Counted from the first letter of the stretch, positions 4,666-48,244 are shown. The stretch: 64,000 nt of DNA from an uncultured Chloroflexia bacterium (GCA_963849635.1 CAWKIA010000024.1:33615-97614); one strand, 5' to 3'. The notes: generated by a model from the sequence alone, not told the origin. Translations and numbers: made by a program.

Positions 4666-6246
4666 CTACTCGCCTATCTTTGCGCCACTGACGAAGACGA
4701 AGCCGAGCGGGTTGATCTCCCATCCTGTTACGTCCGGGGCCAGCAACGACGCCTGGGGTGCCTCCTGAATGACCATGATCGGTAGCTCCTGCACCGTCAG
4801 GTCCTGGAGCTCGCCATAGAGCGCCGTCCGCTCCGCCTGGTCGAGGGTCTGGTTCGATTCGGTCGCGAGGCGCGCCGCATCGGGGTTTGTCCAGCCGTCG
4901 TCCAAATGGGGCTTGAGGCCGAGGCTGACGAAGTAGTTCGGGTCCGCGAAACCTGGGAAGACGTTCCAGATCACGTCGTAGGTGTGGTTGATGTAGTTGT
5001 CCAACCAAACGGAGAGTTCCTGGACCTCGATGTTCATGGTGATACCAGCTTCGGCGAGGCCGGCCTGCCAGATCGTCGCGGCCTTTTCTCCATCGGGATA
5101 GCCCTGAATGCAGAGACAAGTGAACTCAAGGTCGGTGACGCTGGCTTCCGTGAGCAGCGCGGTGGCGGCAGCGGGGTCGTACGGATAGCCTGCTTCTTCT
5201 TTGTAGGCCCAGTGGGTCGACCCGACAAAGCTCCACTTCGGAAAGCCCTCGCCGTTGAAGACGGTCGCCTGGACCGCCGCCTTGTCGAGACAGTGGGCGA
5301 GCGCCTGACGGACCGCCACGTTGGACCGGATTGCCTCGTGATTCTTGCCGAGCATCTCGAAGAGGTGAATTGAGGTCGTTGGAACGATCACGGCGGACAC
5401 GTCGGTCGAGTCCTTGAGCGGCGCCGCCTGCGAAACCGGGACGTTCAGCACCGCGTCCACCGTGTCGCTCTGCAGGTTGGTGATCGCGATCTGGGCTTCC
5501 GGGATGATCTTGAACGTCAGCTTATCGACACCCGGCACGCCCGACTCGTGGTAGTTCGGGTTGCGCTCGAGCACGATGCTGTCGTTGGGCGTCCATTCGA
5601 CAAACGTGAATGGGCCGGTTCCGACTGCCGTGGTTTCGATCTCTTCGGCGATCTCGGGCGAGATGATGCTTAGCGGAACAAGGCCATCGAGGAAGTCTGC
5701 CTGCACGTTCGTAAGGGTGATCTTGACTGTCTTCGGATCGACGACCTCATAGCCGGCGATGTTGGCCACGCGGCTCGCCCAGACTGTCTCCTTCTCCGCG
5801 ATCCGCTTGAAGGAGAACTCGATATGGCTCGCCTCGACCGCCTGCCCGCTGTGGTAGGTCAGGCCATCCTTGAGTGTGAAGATGTAGGTCTTGTCGTCGG
5901 GATTCTCCCAGGATGCAGCCAGATCGCCGACGTAGCTGAGGTCCGGTGCGTACTTCACCAGGCCGTTGAAGACGGTGAAGCGCATCATGTTGCCAAAGAC
6001 GAGGAGCTGGCTGACATGAGGATCGGTCGTGTCGATGTCGCCGTCGGCCGCGACGACCAGTTCGCCGCCATCCTGGGCGAGCACCCTGAGGCTGCCCAAT
6101 CCAGGTGTCGCCAGGGCCGCACCGAGGGCGGTTGCCCCGACGCCGAGGAGTCCAGCCTTCTCCATCAACGTTCGACGATTGAGTTTGCCCTGGAAGAAAG
6201 CGCTAACCAACGATTCGGCTCGAATGCTCTCGGTGCGGTCCCGCAT
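4666..6246 (-). CDS. ABC transporter substrate-binding protein, family 5 (Tat-like leader)
   Basis: GGAGGAG RBS before ATG 6246. NRRTLM twin-Arg leader; GTGPFTFVEW; DPHVS; family-5 architecture. Confidence 0.92.
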   Translation of the reverse strand: MRDRTESIRAESLVSAFFQGKLNRRTLMEKAGLLGVGATALGAALATPGLGSLRVLAQDGGELVVAADGDIDTTDPHVSQLLVFGNMMRFTVFNGLVKYAPDLSYVGDLAASWENPDDKTYIFTLKDGLTYHSGQAVEASHIEFSFKRIAEKETVWASRVANIAGYEVVDPKTVKITLTNVQADFLDGLVPLSIISPEIAEEIETTAVGTGPFTFVEWTPNDSIVLERNPNYHESGVPGVDKLTFKIIPEAQIAITNLQSDTVDAVLNVPVSQAAPLKDSTDVSAVIVPTTSIHLFEMLGKNHEAIRSNVAVRQALAHCLDKAAVQATVFNGEGFPKWSFVGSTHWAYKEEAGYPYDPAAATALLTEASVTDLEFTCLCIQGYPDGEKAATIWQAGLAEAGITMNIEVQELSVWLDNYINHTYDVIWNVFPGFADPNYFVSLGLKPHLDDGWTNPDAARLATESNQTLDQAERTALYGELQDLTVQELPIMVIQEAPQASLLAPDVTGWEINPLGFVFVSGAKIGE

Positions 6247-6557
6247 ATGCTCCTCCATGTTCACGTAGTTTGCTGCCGGTCAGAGTGAATTACTCGTGCG
6301 ATATTCCTTCCCGGGACAGGCCGATTCCGCACGCCCTCGCGCCATGCAGCGCCGCGAGGACAGTCCCGTCGTGCAAGGAATCCGCATACCCGGAGCAAGA
6401 GGGTTGCATCCTATCCGGCGCATCCGGTTTGTCAAGCGTCCCAACGCGAGCGGCGGACCAACTGAAGTCCAACATCAACTCGATAGCACGATGGAGCCCA
6501 GTGACACTCTCTCGTCCGCTTGGCCGTGGCGGCAAGGACGCGTGGCAGCGGCACCGT

Positions 6558-8071
6558 CTAATCCAGGCTGAACGGCGGCACCGTCGTCTTGAAGAGCCAG
6601 TCCTCAAAGAAGGCGCTGAGTTCTTGGCCACTGATCTCTTCGGCGAGGGCGATGAAGTCGGCGGTGGTGGCATTGTCATGACGATAGCGCTCTGTCCACG
6701 CTTGGAGGAGCGTGAAGAAGGCGTCGTCTCCGACGGTGATTCTGAGGGCGTGGAGGGTCAGGGCGCCACGGCCATAGATCGCGGTGGGCGAGAAGAGTTG
6801 GTCCGGACCGGGGTCGCCGGTGAGCAGCGGCGGGCCGGGTGCGAACAGGTTCTGAAGTCTCCTGTTGCGCGCTTCCACTCCTTGCGAGTGTTCGAGCCAG
6901 AGTACTTCGGCGTAGACGGCGAACCCTTCGCTCAGCCAGATATCGCGCCAGTTGTGAATACTGACCGAATCGCCGAACCACTGGTGGGCTAATTCGTGGA
7001 CGATTGTGAGCTCGAAGCTGCTCAGCAGGTTGGGCGCGACCGGAACGTCTCGGCCTTCGCGCAGGGACCCGAAGATTGGGAGCGTCTGCGTCTCGAGTGC
7101 CAATCCGATCGATTCACTGATGACCGTGGCCCCAAGCGATTCGAACGGGTATGGCCCGAAGACAGACTCCAGATAGGCAAGGATCTCAGGGATTTTCCTG
7201 AAGGTAGCGCGCTGATCGTCGGGAACGGTCGGAGCGAACGAGATCTGGATCGGGAGTCCGGTGGCGCCATTGAGGTTCTCGGTCTCGAGCAACCCGGCAT
7301 GGAGGGTGACGAGGTAACTGGCCATCGGATCGGGCGAATCCCAGACAAACGTTGTGCTCTCCCCGTTGTCGACGTGATCGATGAGGGAACCATTGGCGAC
7401 GACAGTGAACGGCTCGGGTACGGTGTAGCGGGCGGTGTAGGATGCTTTGTCGGCGGGATGCTCATTGACCGGGTACCAGTAGCGGCTGCCGGTCGGCTCG
7501 CCCAGGGTAAAGATCTCGCTGTCGGTTGCAAACCAGCCACCCCGAATGACCGGCGTTTCGTCGGGATCGGCTCCACCCAGGCCAATGGTCGAATCTTCGA
7601 GCGCCGGCGGAGCGGGACGCGCCAGGGACGCCGCCACCGGGGTGCCGTGATAGCGCACGGTGACCGCGAAAGATGTGCCGGTGGCGATAGGCTCCGCGGG
7701 AGTAATGGTCAGTTCCTTGCCGTTTCGGGCGTACTGCGTTGGGACACCGTCGACCGAGATGGCATCGATGGTGAGCCCTTCGAAGTCCAGGTTGAATGCG
7801 CAGAGGCTGGTCGACGCCTGAGCGTCGATGGTGACGGTCGCTTCAGCGATCTCGCCCCAGTTCCGTCAAGGTTGAGGTCCAGATCGTAGTGGAGCACGTC
7901 GTAGCCGCCGTTGCCCATCGTCGGGTAGTAAGGGTCCCCGATGCCGTTCGACCCGATTGCACAGGAAGAGCTGGAAGACTGGGTGGCGCCGATGGCGCGG
8001 ACCGGTATGCCGGCGGTGAGAATGAGAACGAAGAGGAGAGCGAATTGAGGGTTCCAGATTCGGCCCCGCAT
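6558..8071 (-). CDS. M1-family zinc aminopeptidase, secreted; frameshift near 7860
   Basis: Signal peptide, then GDPYYPTMGNGGYDVLHYDL (ORF 7709..8092) joins ORF 6558..7658. Carries HELAHQWFGD and WLSEGFAVYAE (HEXXH-x18-E). Confidence 0.88.
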
Positions 8072-43124: not shown

Positions 43125-45119
43125 ATGACAGCCACCCTTGAAAGCCCAGCCGCAACGACGACACAGACGAAGCCACTCACCCCCGAGATCCTGGTCTACG
43201 GCTTTACCTCCGCTGGCGGGCCGCGGATCTCGCCGGATGGCACGACAATCGTCTATGCCCTGGGTAGGACCGATCAGGAGACCGGCAACTCCCAATCCCA
43301 CCTGTGGCGTTGCGCCATCGATGGCGGCAATGCCCGCCAGTTGACCTTCGGGACCTCGAAGAACGGCGGTCCGGTCTGGTCCCCGGACGGGAGCACTATC
43401 GCATTCACGTCCGACCGTGTCGATAAGCCCGCCAAGCAAGGAATCTTCGTCCTCTCGATCGCGGGCGGCGAGAGCCGCGAGGTGACGGGCCACACGGTGG
43501 AGATCTCTGGGCTCGCCTGGTCGCCGGATGGCGCCCACCTCGCCTACATCGCCTCGTTCGATCCCGACAACCCGGACGAAGTCGACCGCCCGGCCGACGC
43601 CCCGCCTCCGGTGCGCGTCTTCCGCCGGATCGACTACAAGCAGGACAACCGTGGCTACCTGGGCGACAAGCGTCTCCAGGTCTGGGTGGTCGATGTCGCC
43701 AGCGGCGTCCGCCGCATGGTCACCACCGATGCCGTCGACCACACCGATCCGGTCTGGTCTCCTGACGGCAAGATCATCGCGGTCAAGATCGCCAACCGGA
43801 ATGGGCTGTGCTCACAGCTCGGCCTGATCGACGTCGCCACCGGCGCGGTGACGCTCGTTGGTCCTCGGGACGGCGCCGTGGCCGTGTGGGCATTCACGCC
43901 GGATGGGAGCAAGATTCTCTACGCCGGCGACGAGACCCAGACCTGGCAGGCCGATTTCTTCCTCTACGACATCGCCGCCAGAACATCGCGCCGGCTGACC
44001 GATGACCTTCAAGTACTCCCGGACGCCGGGTTCCCAACGATTGCCTCGCCGTCGCAGCCCGTCTGGCTGCCGGACGGTCGCGCCCTGGTTCACGCCACCC
44101 GGGCGGGCGGCAGCGGTCTCTATGCCCTCAACGTCGAGACCGCCGAGGTGGAGACGCTCCACACCTGGCAGGCAGTGCTGGGCGGCCTGAGCATCGACGC
44201 AAGCGGGCGCTATGCGGTTCAGGGGTACACCAGCCTGGAATCGGTTGGCGAGATCGTCGTCACCGATCTCAACTCCCGGACCGCGAGGGTGATTACGACG
44301 TATTCGGAGCCGACCCTGGCGGACACGCCGGCAGCCAAGTGGGAGCGATTCGATATCGAGCGCGGCGGCCTGACGATCGAGGCCTGGCTCCTCTTCCCAC
44401 CCGACTTCGACCCGGCAAAGAAGTATCCGGTTGTGCTCGATGTGCACGGCGGACCCAACGGACACTACGGCTACGGGTTCAACGCGACCCAGCAGGCGCT
44501 CGCCGGGGCCGGCTTCCTGGTGGTCTTCTCCAACCCGCGTGGTTCAACCTCCTACGGCCGCGACTTTACCAGCCGGGTGACCAACGATTGGGGCGGCGAG
44601 GACTTCCTCGATCTGATGGGCGTGGTCGATGCCGTCCTGGAGCGCCCGTACGCTGATGCCGAGCGCACCGGCATCGTCGGCTACTCCTACGGCGGCTACA
44701 TGACTTCCTGGACGATCGGCCAGACGGATAGGTTCAAGGCGGCCGTCTGCGGGGCGCCCTGCTTCGACTTGGAGTCGATGTGGGGCACCAGCGACATCGG
44801 CCATGTTTTCGGACCGATGCAATGGGGCGGGACGCCCCATGTGAGTCCGGAGTGGTACGCGGCTCACTCTCCCTCGTACTTCGCCCACCGCGCGACCACG
44901 CCGACCCTGATCGTCCACGGCGAAGCCGACGACCGCTGCCCGATCGGCCAGGGCGAGCAGATGTTCGTGGCGCTCTCAGATGCAGGCTGTGAGGTCGAGT
45001 TCGCTCGCTATCCGGGCGGTTCTCACCTCTTCCTCCGCTCCGGCCCATCCGCCCACAAGGTCGACTACTACACGCGCGTCACCGGGTGGTTCCGCGACCA
45101 TCTCGGCGGAGCGAAGTGA
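43125..45119 (+). CDS. S9-family prolyl oligopeptidase / acylaminoacyl peptidase
   Basis: GGAGG RBS; PD40 propeller repeats (WSPDG); HGGP; GYSYGG nucleophile; DDRC; SH catalytic His. Confidence 0.95.
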   Translation: MTATLESPAATTTQTKPLTPEILVYGFTSAGGPRISPDGTTIVYALGRTDQETGNSQSHLWRCAIDGGNARQLTFGTSKNGGPVWSPDGSTIAFTSDRVDKPAKQGIFVLSIAGGESREVTGHTVEISGLAWSPDGAHLAYIASFDPDNPDEVDRPADAPPPVRVFRRIDYKQDNRGYLGDKRLQVWVVDVASGVRRMVTTDAVDHTDPVWSPDGKIIAVKIANRNGLCSQLGLIDVATGAVTLVGPRDGAVAVWAFTPDGSKILYAGDETQTWQADFFLYDIAARTSRRLTDDLQVLPDAGFPTIASPSQPVWLPDGRALVHATRAGGSGLYALNVETAEVETLHTWQAVLGGLSIDASGRYAVQGYTSLESVGEIVVTDLNSRTARVITTYSEPTLADTPAAKWERFDIERGGLTIEAWLLFPPDFDPAKKYPVVLDVHGGPNGHYGYGFNATQQALAGAGFLVVFSNPRGSTSYGRDFTSRVTNDWGGEDFLDLMGVVDAVLERPYADAERTGIVGYSYGGYMTSWTIGQTDRFKAAVCGAPCFDLESMWGTSDIGHVFGPMQWGGTPHVSPEWYAAHSPSYFAHRATTPTLIVHGEADDRCPIGQGEQMFVALSDAGCEVEFARYPGGSHLFLRSGPSAHKVDYYTRVTGWFRDHLGGAK

Positions 45120-45469
45120 GCGAATCTAGCGGGGAACATCGGCCCTTTCGCGCGAGCGAGGCACAGGCGAGAAGGAAGTTCAAGCATGCGCGCACGTTTG
45201 GCATCGAAGGGCCGTGCAACCGAGCATCCATCGCGCAGTTTATCCATGCCATGGAGATGCACGTTGCTGATCGAGAGAACGACGCGGTGCCGTGTGTCTT
45301 TGCTCGGGGAGCCTCGAAGGGCGGGTATCCCGTGCTCGTCTACGTGGACTGGCGGAGCGGTTTGGCCGTCATCACCGATCTGACTGGTCAGTACGTGACC
45401 AGTTACGAGCTTTCACCTGACCAACGGCAGGCACTGATAGCGGTTGGGCGACTTGGCGGTGGACCGTAG
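45116..45469 (+). CDS. Stand-alone colicin D-like tRNase toxin domain
   Basis: QARRKFKHARTFGIEGPCNRASIAQFIHAMEMHVAD aligns by eye with colicin D QLDKKYKHAGDFGI..KNRETLTKFRDAIEEHLSD. Ends YELSPDQRQALIAVGRLGGG. GTG start overlaps the upstream TGA. Confidence 0.75.
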   Translation: MSESSGEHRPFRASEAQARRKFKHARTFGIEGPCNRASIAQFIHAMEMHVADRENDAVPCVFARGASKGGYPVLVYVDWRSGLAVITDLTGQYVTSYELSPDQRQALIAVGRLGGGP

Positions 45470-45558
45470 GAACTTGATCCGTTGAGAGCCGCTAGAATGA
45501 ATGAGCGTCGGGCGCGGACGTCGAAGAGAACGTCGCCAGCGCGAGGAGAAATGCGGAC

Positions 45559-45861
45559 ATGCCAGCACGATTGCCAGCATCACCACGTTCGCTGGATGAA
45601 TACGTTTCGCTCATGGATGCGTTCTCCGGCGGACGGCTTCCGGTGGACGTGTTCGAGCGGCGATATCTCGACCTGTTCCAATCCGACCAGACGATGCGTG
45701 GAGAGTTCATCTTCCGCACAATTGAGGACGTCTTCTTCGCGGTCGATGAGTATTGCGGTGATCCCGACCTGCGGGGCGAGTACGACATCGACGAGGACCA
45801 ACTGCGGGAGCGGGTTCGGGCCGCGCTTGAAGCACTCGCCAACGTCAGGGCACCTGTCTAG
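45559..45861 (+). CDS. Colicin D immunity-like protein
   Basis: GAGGAG RBS; acidic helical 100-aa protein, LMDAFSGGRLPVDVFERRYL ... EDVFFAVDEY..D.DLRGEYDIDEDQLRERVRAALE, matching the ImmD pattern. Confidence 0.78.
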   Translation: MPARLPASPRSLDEYVSLMDAFSGGRLPVDVFERRYLDLFQSDQTMRGEFIFRTIEDVFFAVDEYCGDPDLRGEYDIDEDQLRERVRAALEALANVRAPV

Positions 45862-46141
45862 GCCAATGGTCAGCACTTAGACATCATTGGCGTTCGCCCC
45901 GTCAGCATCGATCGCAATCCTGACAATGGCGTTGCCCCCTCACCCTCGTGTAGGGATGCCGCGCGAATCCCGCGTCTTTAGAGTGAAGGGCGGGATGCGG
46001 TTGTATACTCGCGGGGACTGTTTGTCCCCTTGCCGGGCTGTACGTTGAGAGCGCAAGATCGCCGATCACCGACCCGGATCGACGCCGAAGTCCAACTGTC
46101 CTGCCGGCTACTCGGCTTTGCCGCCCTAGCCGACCGAGAAA

Positions 46142-48244
46142 GTGAGCCAATCCATGTTCCGCTGCAAGGTCTGTGGCTGGATCCACGAAGGGGAGACACC
46201 GCCGGATAGCTGCCCGTCTTGCGGGTCGCCGGCGGATCGCTTCCGGCCGATGACCGGACAGGAGGTCGGCCTGGCGGCCGGCGACCTGTCGGCGTACGGG
46301 ATCGTCGGCCAGGGCTACGACATGGATGTCGAGGACGGGCGGCGGATTCGTCTGCTCGCCTTCGTCGATGCCTCCTTCTACGCACCATTTGCCCGGCGGC
46401 AGGGCAAGCGCTACCCGATTTTTACCGGCGACGCGCAGTGGTTCTCCGACAACATTCCCTGCATGAGCGCCTGCCCGGCCCACACCGATATCTCGCGCTA
46501 CATCGCCTTCATCGCCGACGGGCGCTACGCCGACTCCTTCGAGCTCAACCGTGAGCACAACGTCTTTCCTGGTTGCCTGGGTCGGATGTGCGCCCGGCCT
46601 TGTGAGGAAGCATGCCGGCGGAAAGAGGTCGATGCTCCGATCGGCATCTGCTACCTAAAGCGGGTTGCGGCTGACTACCGTGGCGAGACCCGGCGGGAGA
46701 CACCGCCGCCGCCGAACGGTCTGACCGCCGCCGTCATCGGGGCCGGGGCCGCTGGGTTGACGACTGCCCGGCAACTCGGCCGCAAGGGCTATGCGGTCAC
46801 GGTCTACGAAAAATTTCCGGTTCCAGGTGGCGTGATGTGGACGGGGGTACCGGAATGGCGTCTACCGCGCGACGTGATCATGGACGAGGTCGAGCTGATC
46901 ACCGATCTTGGCATCGAGATCAAGTACGGAGTTGAGATCGGCAAAGACATTACGATGCAGCAGCTCTCCGACGGTCATGATGTCGTCGTGATCGCGGCCG
47001 GTTGCCAGACTGCGTCCCCGCTCGGTATTCCGGGGGAGGATATGCAGGGAGTCGTCTCCGGGCTGCAGTTCCTGGAGGATGTCGCCCTGGGTCAGAAGGA
47101 AGTTTGGGTCGGGCAGCGGGTCGTCACCGTCGGTGGTGGATTCACCTCGATGGACTGCGTTCGCACTGTCCTCCGAATGGGGTCTGAGCGGTCGGTGATG
47201 ACCTATCGCCGGTCGATCCAGGAGATCCCGGTCGATGAGCTTGAGCTGGAGGAAGCCGAGATCGAAGGCGTCGAGATCATGTACATGGTCTCGCCCGTGC
47301 GGGTCGTCGGCGAGCGCGGCCGGGTCACCGGGATCGAGCTGATCAAGAACGATCTGGGCGAGCCGGATGCTCAGGGGAGGCGCCGGCCGGAGCCAGTTGC
47401 CGGGAGCGAGTTTGTTATCCCCTGCGACATGATCCTGGTCGCGATCGGCCAACGGCAGGACAACAATTTGCTTGGCGACATGCTGCCGGAGCGCGATCGC
47501 CGCGGGGTGCCCCTGCTCGATCAGAATCTCAAGACGGCGCTGCCGAACGTGTGGGCAGTGGGCGACTACGTCATCAATCCGACCAACTTCATCTCCTCGA
47601 TCGGCGAGGGCAAGCGGGTGGCGGATCTGATCGATGAGGAGTTGCGCGGGGCGCGGCCACGGGTCCGGGAGATGGAGATCACTCGGGTTCCGACCGAGTT
47701 CGTTGCGACGCCGAATCCGCTCGTTGCCGAGGGTGTGGCCGAGTGGAGTTTGACCGCGATGAGCCGCCGCCTTGTTTGGGGCGACGATTATGCGGGCGTC
47801 GGCCGCCAGGAGATGCCGACCCTGCCGGTGCCGAATCGTGGCCTGGGGACGGGCGACTACACGCTGGAGACGGAGCTCGGCTACACCAAGCCGATCGGGT
47901 TCGAGGAGGCGAAGCGTTGCCTCCAGTGCCAGCTGAACATCTTCATCGACGGCAACCGCTGCATCCTGTGCAATGGCTGCGTCGATGCCTGCCCGCACCA
48001 GTGCATCGAGATGATCTCGCTCGACCGGATCTACTCGATCGACAACGACATCGAGCTGGCGGAGATGGCCCGTGGTGAGCTGGGCCCAAACGCGACGGCG
48101 ATGATCATCGACGAGCGGTCCTGCATCCGCTGCGGCATCTGCGTCGACTGGTGCCCGACCGAGTGCCTGACGATGGACCACTTCCGGGTCACTCCGGCCG
48201 AGCCACGCGAGAGCGTCGATCTGGCGATCGTGGCGGACGGGTAG
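46142..48244 (+). CDS. NAD(P)H-dependent Fe-S flavoprotein (GltD/DsrL-like) with N-terminal rubredoxin-like domain and C-terminal 2x[4Fe-4S] ferredoxin
   Basis: CKVCG..CPSC; PCMSACPAH; CGRMC-type CLGRMCARPCEEAC; VIGAGAAG; VGGGFTSMD; CILCNGCVDACP and CIRCGICVDWCP. Confidence 0.88.
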   Translation: MSQSMFRCKVCGWIHEGETPPDSCPSCGSPADRFRPMTGQEVGLAAGDLSAYGIVGQGYDMDVEDGRRIRLLAFVDASFYAPFARRQGKRYPIFTGDAQWFSDNIPCMSACPAHTDISRYIAFIADGRYADSFELNREHNVFPGCLGRMCARPCEEACRRKEVDAPIGICYLKRVAADYRGETRRETPPPPNGLTAAVIGAGAAGLTTARQLGRKGYAVTVYEKFPVPGGVMWTGVPEWRLPRDVIMDEVELITDLGIEIKYGVEIGKDITMQQLSDGHDVVVIAAGCQTASPLGIPGEDMQGVVSGLQFLEDVALGQKEVWVGQRVVTVGGGFTSMDCVRTVLRMGSERSVMTYRRSIQEIPVDELELEEAEIEGVEIMYMVSPVRVVGERGRVTGIELIKNDLGEPDAQGRRRPEPVAGSEFVIPCDMILVAIGQRQDNNLLGDMLPERDRRGVPLLDQNLKTALPNVWAVGDYVINPTNFISSIGEGKRVADLIDEELRGARPRVREMEITRVPTEFVATPNPLVAEGVAEWSLTAMSRRLVWGDDYAGVGRQEMPTLPVPNRGLGTGDYTLETELGYTKPIGFEEAKRCLQCQLNIFIDGNRCILCNGCVDACPHQCIEMISLDRIYSIDNDIELAEMARGELGPNATAMIIDERSCIRCGICVDWCPTECLTMDHFRVTPAEPRESVDLAIVADG

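Follow-up and report, generated by a model that had tools for sequence, protein, structure and literature searches.

A stand-alone colicin D-type nuclease and immunity gene pair at a polymorphic site behind an S9 peptidase gene in a soil Chloroflexota lineage

Directly behind the stop codon of an S9-family peptidase gene, an uncultured Chloroflexia bacterium carries two small co-oriented genes, one for a colicin D (ColD)-type nuclease domain of 117 amino acids (aa) and one for an ImmD-family immunity protein of 100 aa. The pair lies in a 64,000-nucleotide (nt) stretch of DNA (GCA_963849635.1, CAWKIA010000024.1:33615–97614), hereafter the window; coordinates count from its first letter, and the genes, junction, spacer and cassette of the window described below are on the plus strand. 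In this lineage the position just after the S9 stop codon is polymorphic, holding at least four co-varying allele types, empty in some members and decayed in one. RNases of the ColD type are known and studied as the warheads of exported weapons (colicins, pyocins and contact-dependent growth inhibition (CDI) toxins); here, warhead and inhibitor stand alone. We favour, with moderate confidence, the reading that the pair is an intracellular toxin–antitoxin (TA)-like selfish or defence module. The main rival is a competition toxin that is exported after all, and three lesser explanations are weighed beside it. The S9-coupled polymorphic locus, more than the stand-alone state of the nuclease, is the most interesting aspect of the system.

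The nuclease and its immunity protein

A sequence-only reading of the window had proposed a 117-aa colicin D-type open reading frame (ORF) followed by a 100-aa ImmD-like gene, and both genes held up when their ORFs, Pfam profiles and folds were compared. The toxin ORF (45116–45469) starts with GTG and encodes a protein of 12.8 kDa with a computed pI of 8.7. In the profile search that the earlier reading had called for, both products scored above the family cut-offs. The toxin matched Colicin_D (PF11429) at 39.7 bits (E = 6.6e-10, cut-off 25, profile positions 3–81 of 84), with the match beginning at residue 19, and scored 39.4 bits against the same family in a profile scan of its own genome. 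A phmmer search of the PDB returned the colicin D catalytic-domain chains 1tfo_A and 1v74_A (E = 3e-5), placing KFKHA of the toxin opposite KYKHA of colicin D and, over a longer stretch, RRKFKHARTFGI opposite DKKYKHAGDFGI. The AlphaFold model, built on an alignment of 81 homologues (predicted local distance difference test (pLDDT) 88.8, predicted template modelling score 0.82), had colicin D as all five of its top Foldseek matches in the PDB (probability 1.00, template modelling (TM) score 0.65–0.79, root-mean-square deviation (rmsd) 2.5–3.0 Å), and the first fold other than colicin D followed at E = 0.29.

The immunity gene (45559–45861) stands directly downstream, its ATG 89 nt after the toxin stop codon, and encodes an acidic four-helix protein of 11.5 kDa (pI 4.4, net charge about −9.5). 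Its sole Pfam match is Colicin_immun (PF09204; 49.4 bits, E = 7e-13, cut-off 22, profile positions 2–88 of 88), and no DNA-binding family was found on it. phmmer gave no significant match for this protein in the PDB (E = 0.49); the top PDB folds of its AlphaFold model (pLDDT 86.1) were the ImmD chains 1tfk_B and 1v74_B (probability 1.00, TM 0.67–0.78, rmsd 2.1 Å). Because profile, sequence and fold agree, we regard both identities as confirmed, that of the toxin as a colicin D-type nuclease domain (of the BECR fold) by profile, sequence and predicted fold, and that of its partner as an ImmD-family immunity protein by profile and predicted fold. As a separate observation, the C-terminal positions 121–201 of the NCBIfam model for the monothiol bacilliredoxin AbxC matched the immunity protein at 27 bits; PF09204 is mentioned within AbxC (PMC8301015), so the ImmD fold is reused in this Deinococcus redox protein.

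The active site is kept in most of its positions. Zhang et al. (2012, PMC3482391) gave the Tox-ColD signature as [KH]K, Hxx[ED] and [ST], and listed K607, K608, H611, D614 and S677 of colicin D as essential. In the phmmer alignment these residues pair with R20, K21, H24, T27 and T95 of the toxin, and K610 pairs with K23. The basic motif and the catalytic His are thus in place (R20, K21, H24), as is a last-strand Ser/Thr residue, Thr95 at the S677 position, which is invariant in the clade alignment. The acidic residue of Hxx[ED] is missing, with Thr27 in the toxin and Ala or Pro in its nearest relatives. The earlier statement that K608 and H611 are retained therefore stands; the loss at D614 had escaped that reading. 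We propose R20, K21, K23, H24 and T95 as the candidate active-site residues. Among homologues, His occupies the H611 position in 232/234, and Asp or Glu the D614 position in 175 of the 192 that are N-terminally extended versus 31 of the 42 that stand alone. Loss of the acidic residue is thus commoner in stand-alone forms, yet it is present in about 9% of the N-terminally extended homologues too. Its absence therefore lowers confidence in a full colicin D-like chemistry but, as toxins with delivery regions lose it too, does not in itself show inactivity. Two other members of the family, both CDI toxins, are tabulated as ColD-family tRNases (PMC9990079). By analogy with its family, the toxin of the window is most likely a tRNase as well. 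Colicin D cuts the anticodon loop of tRNA-Arg and those two CDI toxins cleave other tRNAs, so the tRNA specificity of the toxin cannot be assumed.

The 89-nt spacer between the two genes (45470–45558) contains a −10-like TAGAAT (45493–45498) and a GAGGAG Shine–Dalgarno sequence (45543–45548), which lie 60 and 10 nt before the immunity ATG, respectively. A TAnnnT hexamer occurs 48–67 nt before the immunity start at all seven S9-linked loci, that is, in the window and at the six related loci described below (TAGAAT in five, TACCAT and TACAAT in one each). It is unique within the spacer at six of the seven; in L013 a further one, TATCGT, lies 25 nt ahead of the immunity ATG. The remainder of the seven spacers is poorly conserved, and TAGAAT occurs three times in the window. 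By consensus scan we found no convincing full sigma-70 promoter or terminator, and no significant RNA fold or attenuator was detected in the spacer (z-scores −0.47 to +1.2 in six loci). It is from the conserved hexamer only that we infer TAGAAT to be the −10 element of a promoter belonging to the immunity gene itself.

A polymorphic site behind the S9 gene

The gene upstream of the pair (43125–45119) encodes an S9-family peptidase of 664 aa with a PD40 propeller and a Peptidase_S9 catalytic domain, and its product is identical to a called gene. In a 727-aa reading of the same frame, the Pfam Peptidase_S9 match (173.5 bits) extends to residue 725. Its named homologues are S9 peptidases of Thermomicrobiaceae, Nitrolancea and Sphaerobacter, and, judged by its thousands of homologues, it is a conserved core or housekeeping gene of Thermomicrobiales. 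The two reading frames are joined at a coupling junction (45108–45119) that consists of a Shine–Dalgarno-like GGAG (45108–45111), a 4-nt spacer and GTGA. Within GTGA the start codon of the toxin (GTG, 45116) and the stop codon of S9 (TGA, 45117–45119) overlap, and the S9 gene ends 4 bp into the toxin gene. This GTGA junction is present at 7/7 loci (the window and six related ones). Since the toxin start overlaps the stop codon of an intact S9 gene, the toxin is not what is left of a larger toxin gene after decay, a case that the sequence-only reading had named as one that would count against it; the upstream ORF is a complete S9 peptidase that is 83–91% identical in the closest relatives. Two other ways of reading the junction were considered. 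A 127-aa toxin beginning at an upstream in-frame GTG (45086) is disfavoured, as the six related loci all start at GTGA, and an S9–toxin frameshift fusion was set aside, as no slippery sequence precedes the S9 stop.

Six related loci, all on short metagenome contigs (L012, L013, L096, L097, L098 and L099), share one layout: the S9 gene, the GTGA overlap, a ColD gene of 116–118 aa (93 aa in L099), a spacer of 90–145 nt and an ImmD gene. The toxin start is the same in all six, and five of the toxins are intact and one (L099) is decayed. At least four toxin types can be told apart, mutually ≤58% identical, namely that of the window, that of L012, L013 and L097 (80–83% among themselves), that of L096 and that of L098, and immunity identity tracks toxin identity across these alleles. 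Over the last ~114 residues of S9, the stretch comparable in all six, the loci are 80–96% identical, and DNA identity to L012 and L013 falls from ~0.9 to ~0.6 at the toxin start.

Substitution rates draw the same boundary. Between the window and L012, the last 250 S9 codons have a nonsynonymous rate (dN) of 0.042 and a synonymous rate (dS) of 0.55, and dS in the flanks ranges from 0.36 to 0.74. The corresponding values are dN 0.35 and dS 1.8 for the toxin, and dN 0.23 and dS 2.1 for the immunity gene, where dS above about 1.5 is to be read as saturated. Because dS in the cassette is several times that in the flanks, the differences indicate old alleles that were exchanged or maintained, and not just fast protein evolution. 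Over all allele pairs, dN/dS is 0.11–0.42 for the toxin and 0.11–0.25 for the immunity gene, values that indicate purifying selection on both, and the toxin gene is free of stops and frameshifts in six lineages. Recent recombination was rejected as the cause of the high identity at the S9 C-terminus, given that dS there is 0.4–0.9 and not near zero; the gradient of identity along S9 stems mostly from constraint, L097 excepted.

In L097 (75–2021; GCA_030154665.1, JALYEK010025515.1) the S9 gene is a mosaic. Its first ~540 alignment columns are 40–60% identical to every other S9 sequence; its last ~137 residues are 83–99% identical to the genus clade of the window and are followed by a type-A ColD/ImmD cassette. 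This suggests either that the S9 3′ end was transferred together with the cassette or that the contig is chimeric. The locus as a whole may parallel the allele swapping of polymorphic toxins, with at least four types behind a conserved S9 3′ end and dS out of step with the flank, with the reservations that this end belongs to another gene and that the L097 mosaic is possibly a chimera. A separate observation concerns the immunity gene of the window, whose 3′ half (45751–45810) is 87% identical to L012 in DNA and encodes an identical protein segment (FFAVDEYCGDPDLRGEYDIDEDQLR), against ~60% for other cassette DNA; a recombination event that broke off within this gene, or else very strong constraint, may account for the difference.

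The cassette is distributed patchily over the S9 tree. It is found in four of the five members of a genus-level clade, the L099 copy being decayed, and is absent from the same-genus genome G001, from the next branch (L100) and from L102; it is present in L096 and absent from the sister of L096, L101. The decayed allele (L099:2367–2982, JGI 3300012682 contig) is a 93-aa ColD remnant that reads KFEYA in place of KFKHA, with the catalytic His changed to Tyr, and scores under the Pfam cut-off; an ImmD-like gene is still found downstream. What follows the cassette also varies, with an oxidoreductase in the window, a major facilitator superfamily (MFS) transporter in L012 and PAP2 in L096. In L102 (5021–5796; ERZ1300058 NODE_1111), a convergent PIN_3/PhdYeFM TA pair lies directly behind the orthologous S9 gene, and this contig is also syntenic for the region of the 2-hydroxyacid dehydrogenase and S9 peptidase genes.

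The L099 allele and the missing acidic residue raise the question of whether the window itself holds an inactive remnant, its catalysis lost with the change of Asp614 to Thr and the pair drifting, or its immunity gene alone useful against the ColD toxins of relatives. Thr27, the Ala or Pro found there in the closest relatives and the plainly decayed L099 copy would fit this account, as would the general frequency of orphan immunity genes (PMC3482391). Against it stand the toxin dN/dS of 0.11–0.42 and the six lineages without stops or frameshifts, the retention of His24, Lys21, Lys23 and Thr95, and the absence of Asp or Glu in about 9% of the N-terminally extended homologues as well. We hold it to be the least probable of the explanations considered here.

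Genomic setting and relatives of the pair

The source assembly comprises 7.46 Mb in 46 contigs and is 92% complete. From the names of its closest S9 homologues, we infer that the genome belongs to the Thermomicrobiales (Chloroflexota). Soil and rhizosphere sequencing runs, the source sample possibly among them, contain reads that match the cassette exactly. In a blastn comparison with G001, homology ends at 45123 and restarts at 45948, and blastn, the G001 ORFs and the GC profile together delimit an accessory cassette (45124–45947) that has no counterpart in that genome. Its GC content is 0.58–0.61 versus ~0.66 in the flanks, and G001 has an MFS transporter gene at its position. The downstream flank, which lies outside the module, holds a rubredoxin/flavin adenine dinucleotide (FAD)/4Fe-4S oxidoreductase gene (46142–48244) that is 96% identical in G001. 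The neighbours are housekeeping in character (TerC, 2-hydroxyacid dehydrogenase, membrane proteins, the S9 peptidase, the FAD/FeS oxidoreductase, an MFS transporter and a CHRD protein). From this context, the pair is a small accessory insert of ~0.8 kb and not part of a larger toxin locus. In G001 itself (L011, G001:C30:414000–424000, ~4949–7712), the S9 match is broken into several pieces in different frames and the MFS gene is divided between two ORFs; both are pseudogenes or assembly errors.

Nothing at the locus resembles a delivery apparatus, as the sequence-only reading had already stated. The toxin N-terminus has no hydrophobic stretch, signal peptide or additional domain, and the 117 aa include neither receptor-binding or translocation domains ahead of the nuclease nor the N-terminal trafficking part typical of polymorphic toxins. 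Among the ten neighbouring proteins scanned there was no secretion, lysis, mobile-element or defence gene, and no WXG100 or RHS match was found anywhere in the genome. The suggestion of an anti-phage or defence-island context at the locus found no support. Searches with PADLOC-DB v2 gave no match for the toxin or the S9 protein and a chance-level Cas7 match (E = 0.018) for the immunity protein. A tblastn search of plasmid and phage collections, which was of low sensitivity, found no relatives. The search for terminal repeats or a target-site duplication gave chance-level short repeats only. A 13-nt direct repeat, AAGTGAGC(G/C)AATC, spans the toxin start (45114–45126) and recurs where the downstream oxidoreductase gene begins (46140–46152); we estimate about 0.5 such matches by chance in this stretch, the right-hand copy is 190 nt within the conserved flank, and the repeat is probably fortuitous.

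Across the protein family, the stand-alone state is a minority condition that recurs. The survey of homologues for N-terminal fusions, another check proposed in the sequence-only reading, returned 398 relatives at E ≤ 0.001 from 1.84 billion representative proteins, mostly with a C-terminal ColD domain in proteins of 150–1900 aa. In named genomes, 61 of 81 ColD genes had an ImmD-family gene within 400 bp downstream; 14 of the 81 lay in stop-to-stop frames of ≤130 aa, and 13 of these 14 were followed by ImmD. On metagenome contigs 27 of 81 ColD genes stood alone, which gives a stand-alone share of 17–33% among the sampled members of the family. In the domain tree this state originated at least five times, and the toxin of the window falls in clades made up wholly of stand-alone forms (five proteins with support 99, within eight with support 93). 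Databases already label such ~100-aa genes as 'colicin D domain-containing protein' (Richelia sinica, Brunnivagina elsteri, Kamptonema, Pirellulales); these share with our toxin the stand-alone architecture and, in several cases, a place beside housekeeping genes, and differ from it in being only 28–40% identical and in lacking linkage to an S9 peptidase gene. We found no experimental characterisation of these annotated genes in the literature searched, and in a limited full-text search no report that treats solitary ColD/ImmD pairs as intracellular modules.

The settings of other stand-alone genes are mixed. Some pairs lie near housekeeping genes (GH116, ribonucleotide reductase and, at two of the three related cyanobacterial loci scanned, GalT), and a further solitary ColD/ImmD pair has housekeeping genes on either side on a contig of 68 kb. 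A distant pair in a Phormidium sp. metagenome-assembled genome (L057:4722–6641) is directly downstream of a HEPN AbiU2 gene of the abortive-infection type; of the ten genes scanned upstream of stand-alone ColD genes, this was the only one to suggest defence. Two other stand-alone ColD genes (L036 and L063) follow PT-HINT or RHS fragments, and these loci look like true orphans or broken toxins. One 244-aa ORF (P0143) joins a ColD domain that lacks the GRLGGG end to ImmD through a Ser/Ala-rich linker; it is either a frameshifted pseudogene or a natural toxin–immunity fusion.

These relatives bear on whether the pair is an orphan, or reserve, cassette of a polymorphic toxin system, as the sequence-only reading had suggested as one of its options. 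Zhang et al. (2012, PMC3482391) described stand-alone toxin cassettes in these terms, as a stock for recombination that accompanies full-length toxins, and the loci behind PT-HINT or RHS fragments would be examples. The family of our organism also contains a long ColD toxin, in genome G007. In the genome of the window, in contrast, ColD and ImmD are each matched once, with no full-length partner and no RHS or WXG100; the gene upstream is a housekeeping peptidase and not a toxin, and no pre-toxin homology arm is present. The nuclease has its own start codon and a Shine–Dalgarno-like motif, its junction is kept at seven loci and both genes are under purifying selection. An orphan origin is thus very unlikely. 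The G007 gene (L004:1–1809) is worth noting in itself. Its product exceeds 600 aa, with N-terminal hydrophobic segments and ~20 LKELVD-type helical repeats, and the 180-aa gene that follows is not ImmD-like; the protein may represent an uncharacterised delivery architecture in the Thermomicrobiales. In the order as a whole, a ColD homologue was found in 5 of 192 species-level genomes, the four besides that of the window lying in frames of 294–638 aa.

The constancy of the junction could also mean that the coupling to S9 is functional, the three genes forming one unit in which the peptidase, for instance, degrades the immunity protein or processes the toxin upon a trigger. The S9–GTGA–toxin junction is retained at seven loci despite differing downstream neighbours, and two separate S9 clades carry the cassette, as does one S9 gene whose 3′ end is mosaic. 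On the other side, S9 is a widely conserved core gene that lacks the cassette in G001, L100, L101 and L102, and 187 of the 192 genomes of the order have no ColD gene at all. Nor was the linkage seen in wider scans: a metagenome scan for further S9-linked alleles covered 80 ColD loci, all ≤38% identical and none linked to S9, and in named genomes, where ten genes upstream of stand-alone ColD genes were scanned, none encoded an S9 peptidase. Moreover, in high-GC bacteria no type of operon junction is commoner than a 4-bp overlap. We give a functional three-gene unit little weight.

Modes of action

The pair combines features of three kinds of known system and coincides with none. Both partners belong to the same Pfam families as colicin D and ImmD (pColD; PDB 1V74, 1TFO, 1TFK and 5ZNM; klebicin D, carocin S2 and pyocin-type ColD proteins are related) and share with them the folds (TM about 0.7–0.8), the K-x-K-H helix with its catalytic His, the last-strand Ser/Thr, an immunity gene directly downstream and an acidic inhibitor facing a basic enzyme. 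Unlike colicin D (697 aa), the toxin lacks receptor-binding, translocation and central domains, is chromosomal and not plasmid-borne, has Thr at the Asp614 position and a 6-residue RGxxxGG insertion between strands, is ~25% identical in sequence and comes from a soil Chloroflexota host. The operon of a bacteriocin would be sought on a plasmid or prophage with a lysis or release gene, and what we found is a housekeeping chromosomal context with no lysis gene seen. With the ColD-family CDI toxins CdiA-CT(EC3006) and CdiA-CT(Kp342) and the polymorphic toxins (PMC3482391), the locus shares a ColD warhead with a cognate immunity gene downstream, many divergent alleles at one conserved position, a drop in similarity exactly at the toxin start and signs of allele exchange. 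It differs from them in that a distinct housekeeping gene, closed by a stop codon, forms the constant part, where they have an N-terminal delivery region within one protein, and in having no type V, type VI or type VII secretion system, RHS or MuF context and no tandem orphan array. Because delivery domains are lacking, the toxin is not a colicin, pyocin or CDI toxin. Type II TA systems with BECR RNases (RelE/ParE) offer the third comparison. Here the likenesses are two small adjacent co-oriented genes, a cytoplasmic RNase of the same superfold with a protein inhibitor (as predicted from sequence and fold), a patchy accessory distribution at variable spots of the chromosome with decay in some lineages and a PIN–Phd pair at the equivalent site in one relative. 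The toxin gene, however, comes first, the inhibitor is compact and folded without a DNA-binding domain and the BECR clade is a different one; on account of the reversed gene order and of this inhibitor, the pair is not a classical type II TA system.

Presence and absence among relatives, purifying selection on both genes, the decayed L099 allele and the PIN–Phd pair behind the orthologous S9 gene in L102 make an intracellular TA-like module the best fit, one of the functions that the sequence-only reading had put forward. Under this hypothesis, gene 1 would encode a catalytic domain only, a metal-independent ColD-family RNase with His24 as general base, and the acidic four-helix ImmD protein would plug the basic active-site face of the toxin. 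Given that there is neither an export signal nor a delivery domain, the toxin is expected to stay in the producing cell. It would be translated at a low level by termination–reinitiation from the S9 gene at the GTGA overlap; expression of the immunity gene would have two sources, read-through and the −10 element (TAGAAT) in the spacer, which together would keep immunity in excess. The pair would then persist as a TA-like selfish or defence element.

Several points weigh against this hypothesis. The toxin-first order, the absence of a DNA-binding antitoxin domain and the well-folded inhibitor are traits of bacteriocins and polymorphic toxins, and deep, co-varying alleles are the textbook signature of inter-strain antagonism, which requires export. 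To our knowledge, proteolytic lability, which TA-type activation needs, is not known for ImmD-type proteins. The locus has no meaningful match to a PADLOC defence model and lies outside any defence island. Finally, with Thr27 in place of Asp614 the enzyme may be weaker, differently specific or inactive.

The first of these points lead directly to the main rival, a competition toxin that leaves the cell by an unrecognised route (lysis, vesicles or a path particular to Chloroflexota) and kills relatives without the matching immunity. At least four types of ≤58% identity at one site, next to an S9 C-terminus that is 80–96% identical, are what this explanation would lead one to expect, and the contrast between cassette dS (about 1.8–2.1 between the window and L012) and flank dS (0.36–0.74) points to old alleles that were swapped or retained, in the manner of colicin, CDI and Rhs loci. 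The order of toxin and immunity gene and the predicted immunity-specific promoter are bacteriocin-like. A 2026 survey of the BECR fold assigned colicin-like RNases mainly to exported effectors (bioRxiv 10.64898/2026.08.28.747851). Set against this is the lack of any signal peptide or of a receptor-binding, translocation or trafficking domain, the absence of lysis and secretion genes among the neighbours scanned and of WXG100 or RHS in the genome, and the 50–1900 additional N-terminal residues that delivered homologues possess. We also know of no unaided passage of a folded 12.8-kDa RNase through a target membrane. On balance, we think export unlikely, while taking it more seriously than the three lesser rivals.

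Allele diversity and an intracellular role need not exclude each other. We tentatively propose an export-free polymorphic toxin locus, a view we would give a rather small chance of being correct. Here the S9 3′ end would serve as the homology arm for swapping ColD/ImmD alleles, and so take the role that the constant N-terminal region has in CDI and Rhs toxins. The toxin, translated only by reinitiation from the host gene and restrained by an immunity gene with its own promoter, would act as an intracellular abortive-infection or addiction device, and the diversity of alleles would be driven by phage-encoded inhibitors or mimics and not by competition between strains.

Even if the pair proves ordinary, the analysis provides a clean annotation of two hypothetical genes, and the natural set of at least four allele types is a ready-made test of toxin–immunity specificity. 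If the nuclease acts in its own cell, part of what is annotated as bacteriocins or polymorphic toxins would really be TA-like or defence cargo, and ColD/ImmD would offer a compact set of tRNase and inhibitor in which to study how toxins pass between offensive and self-directed roles.

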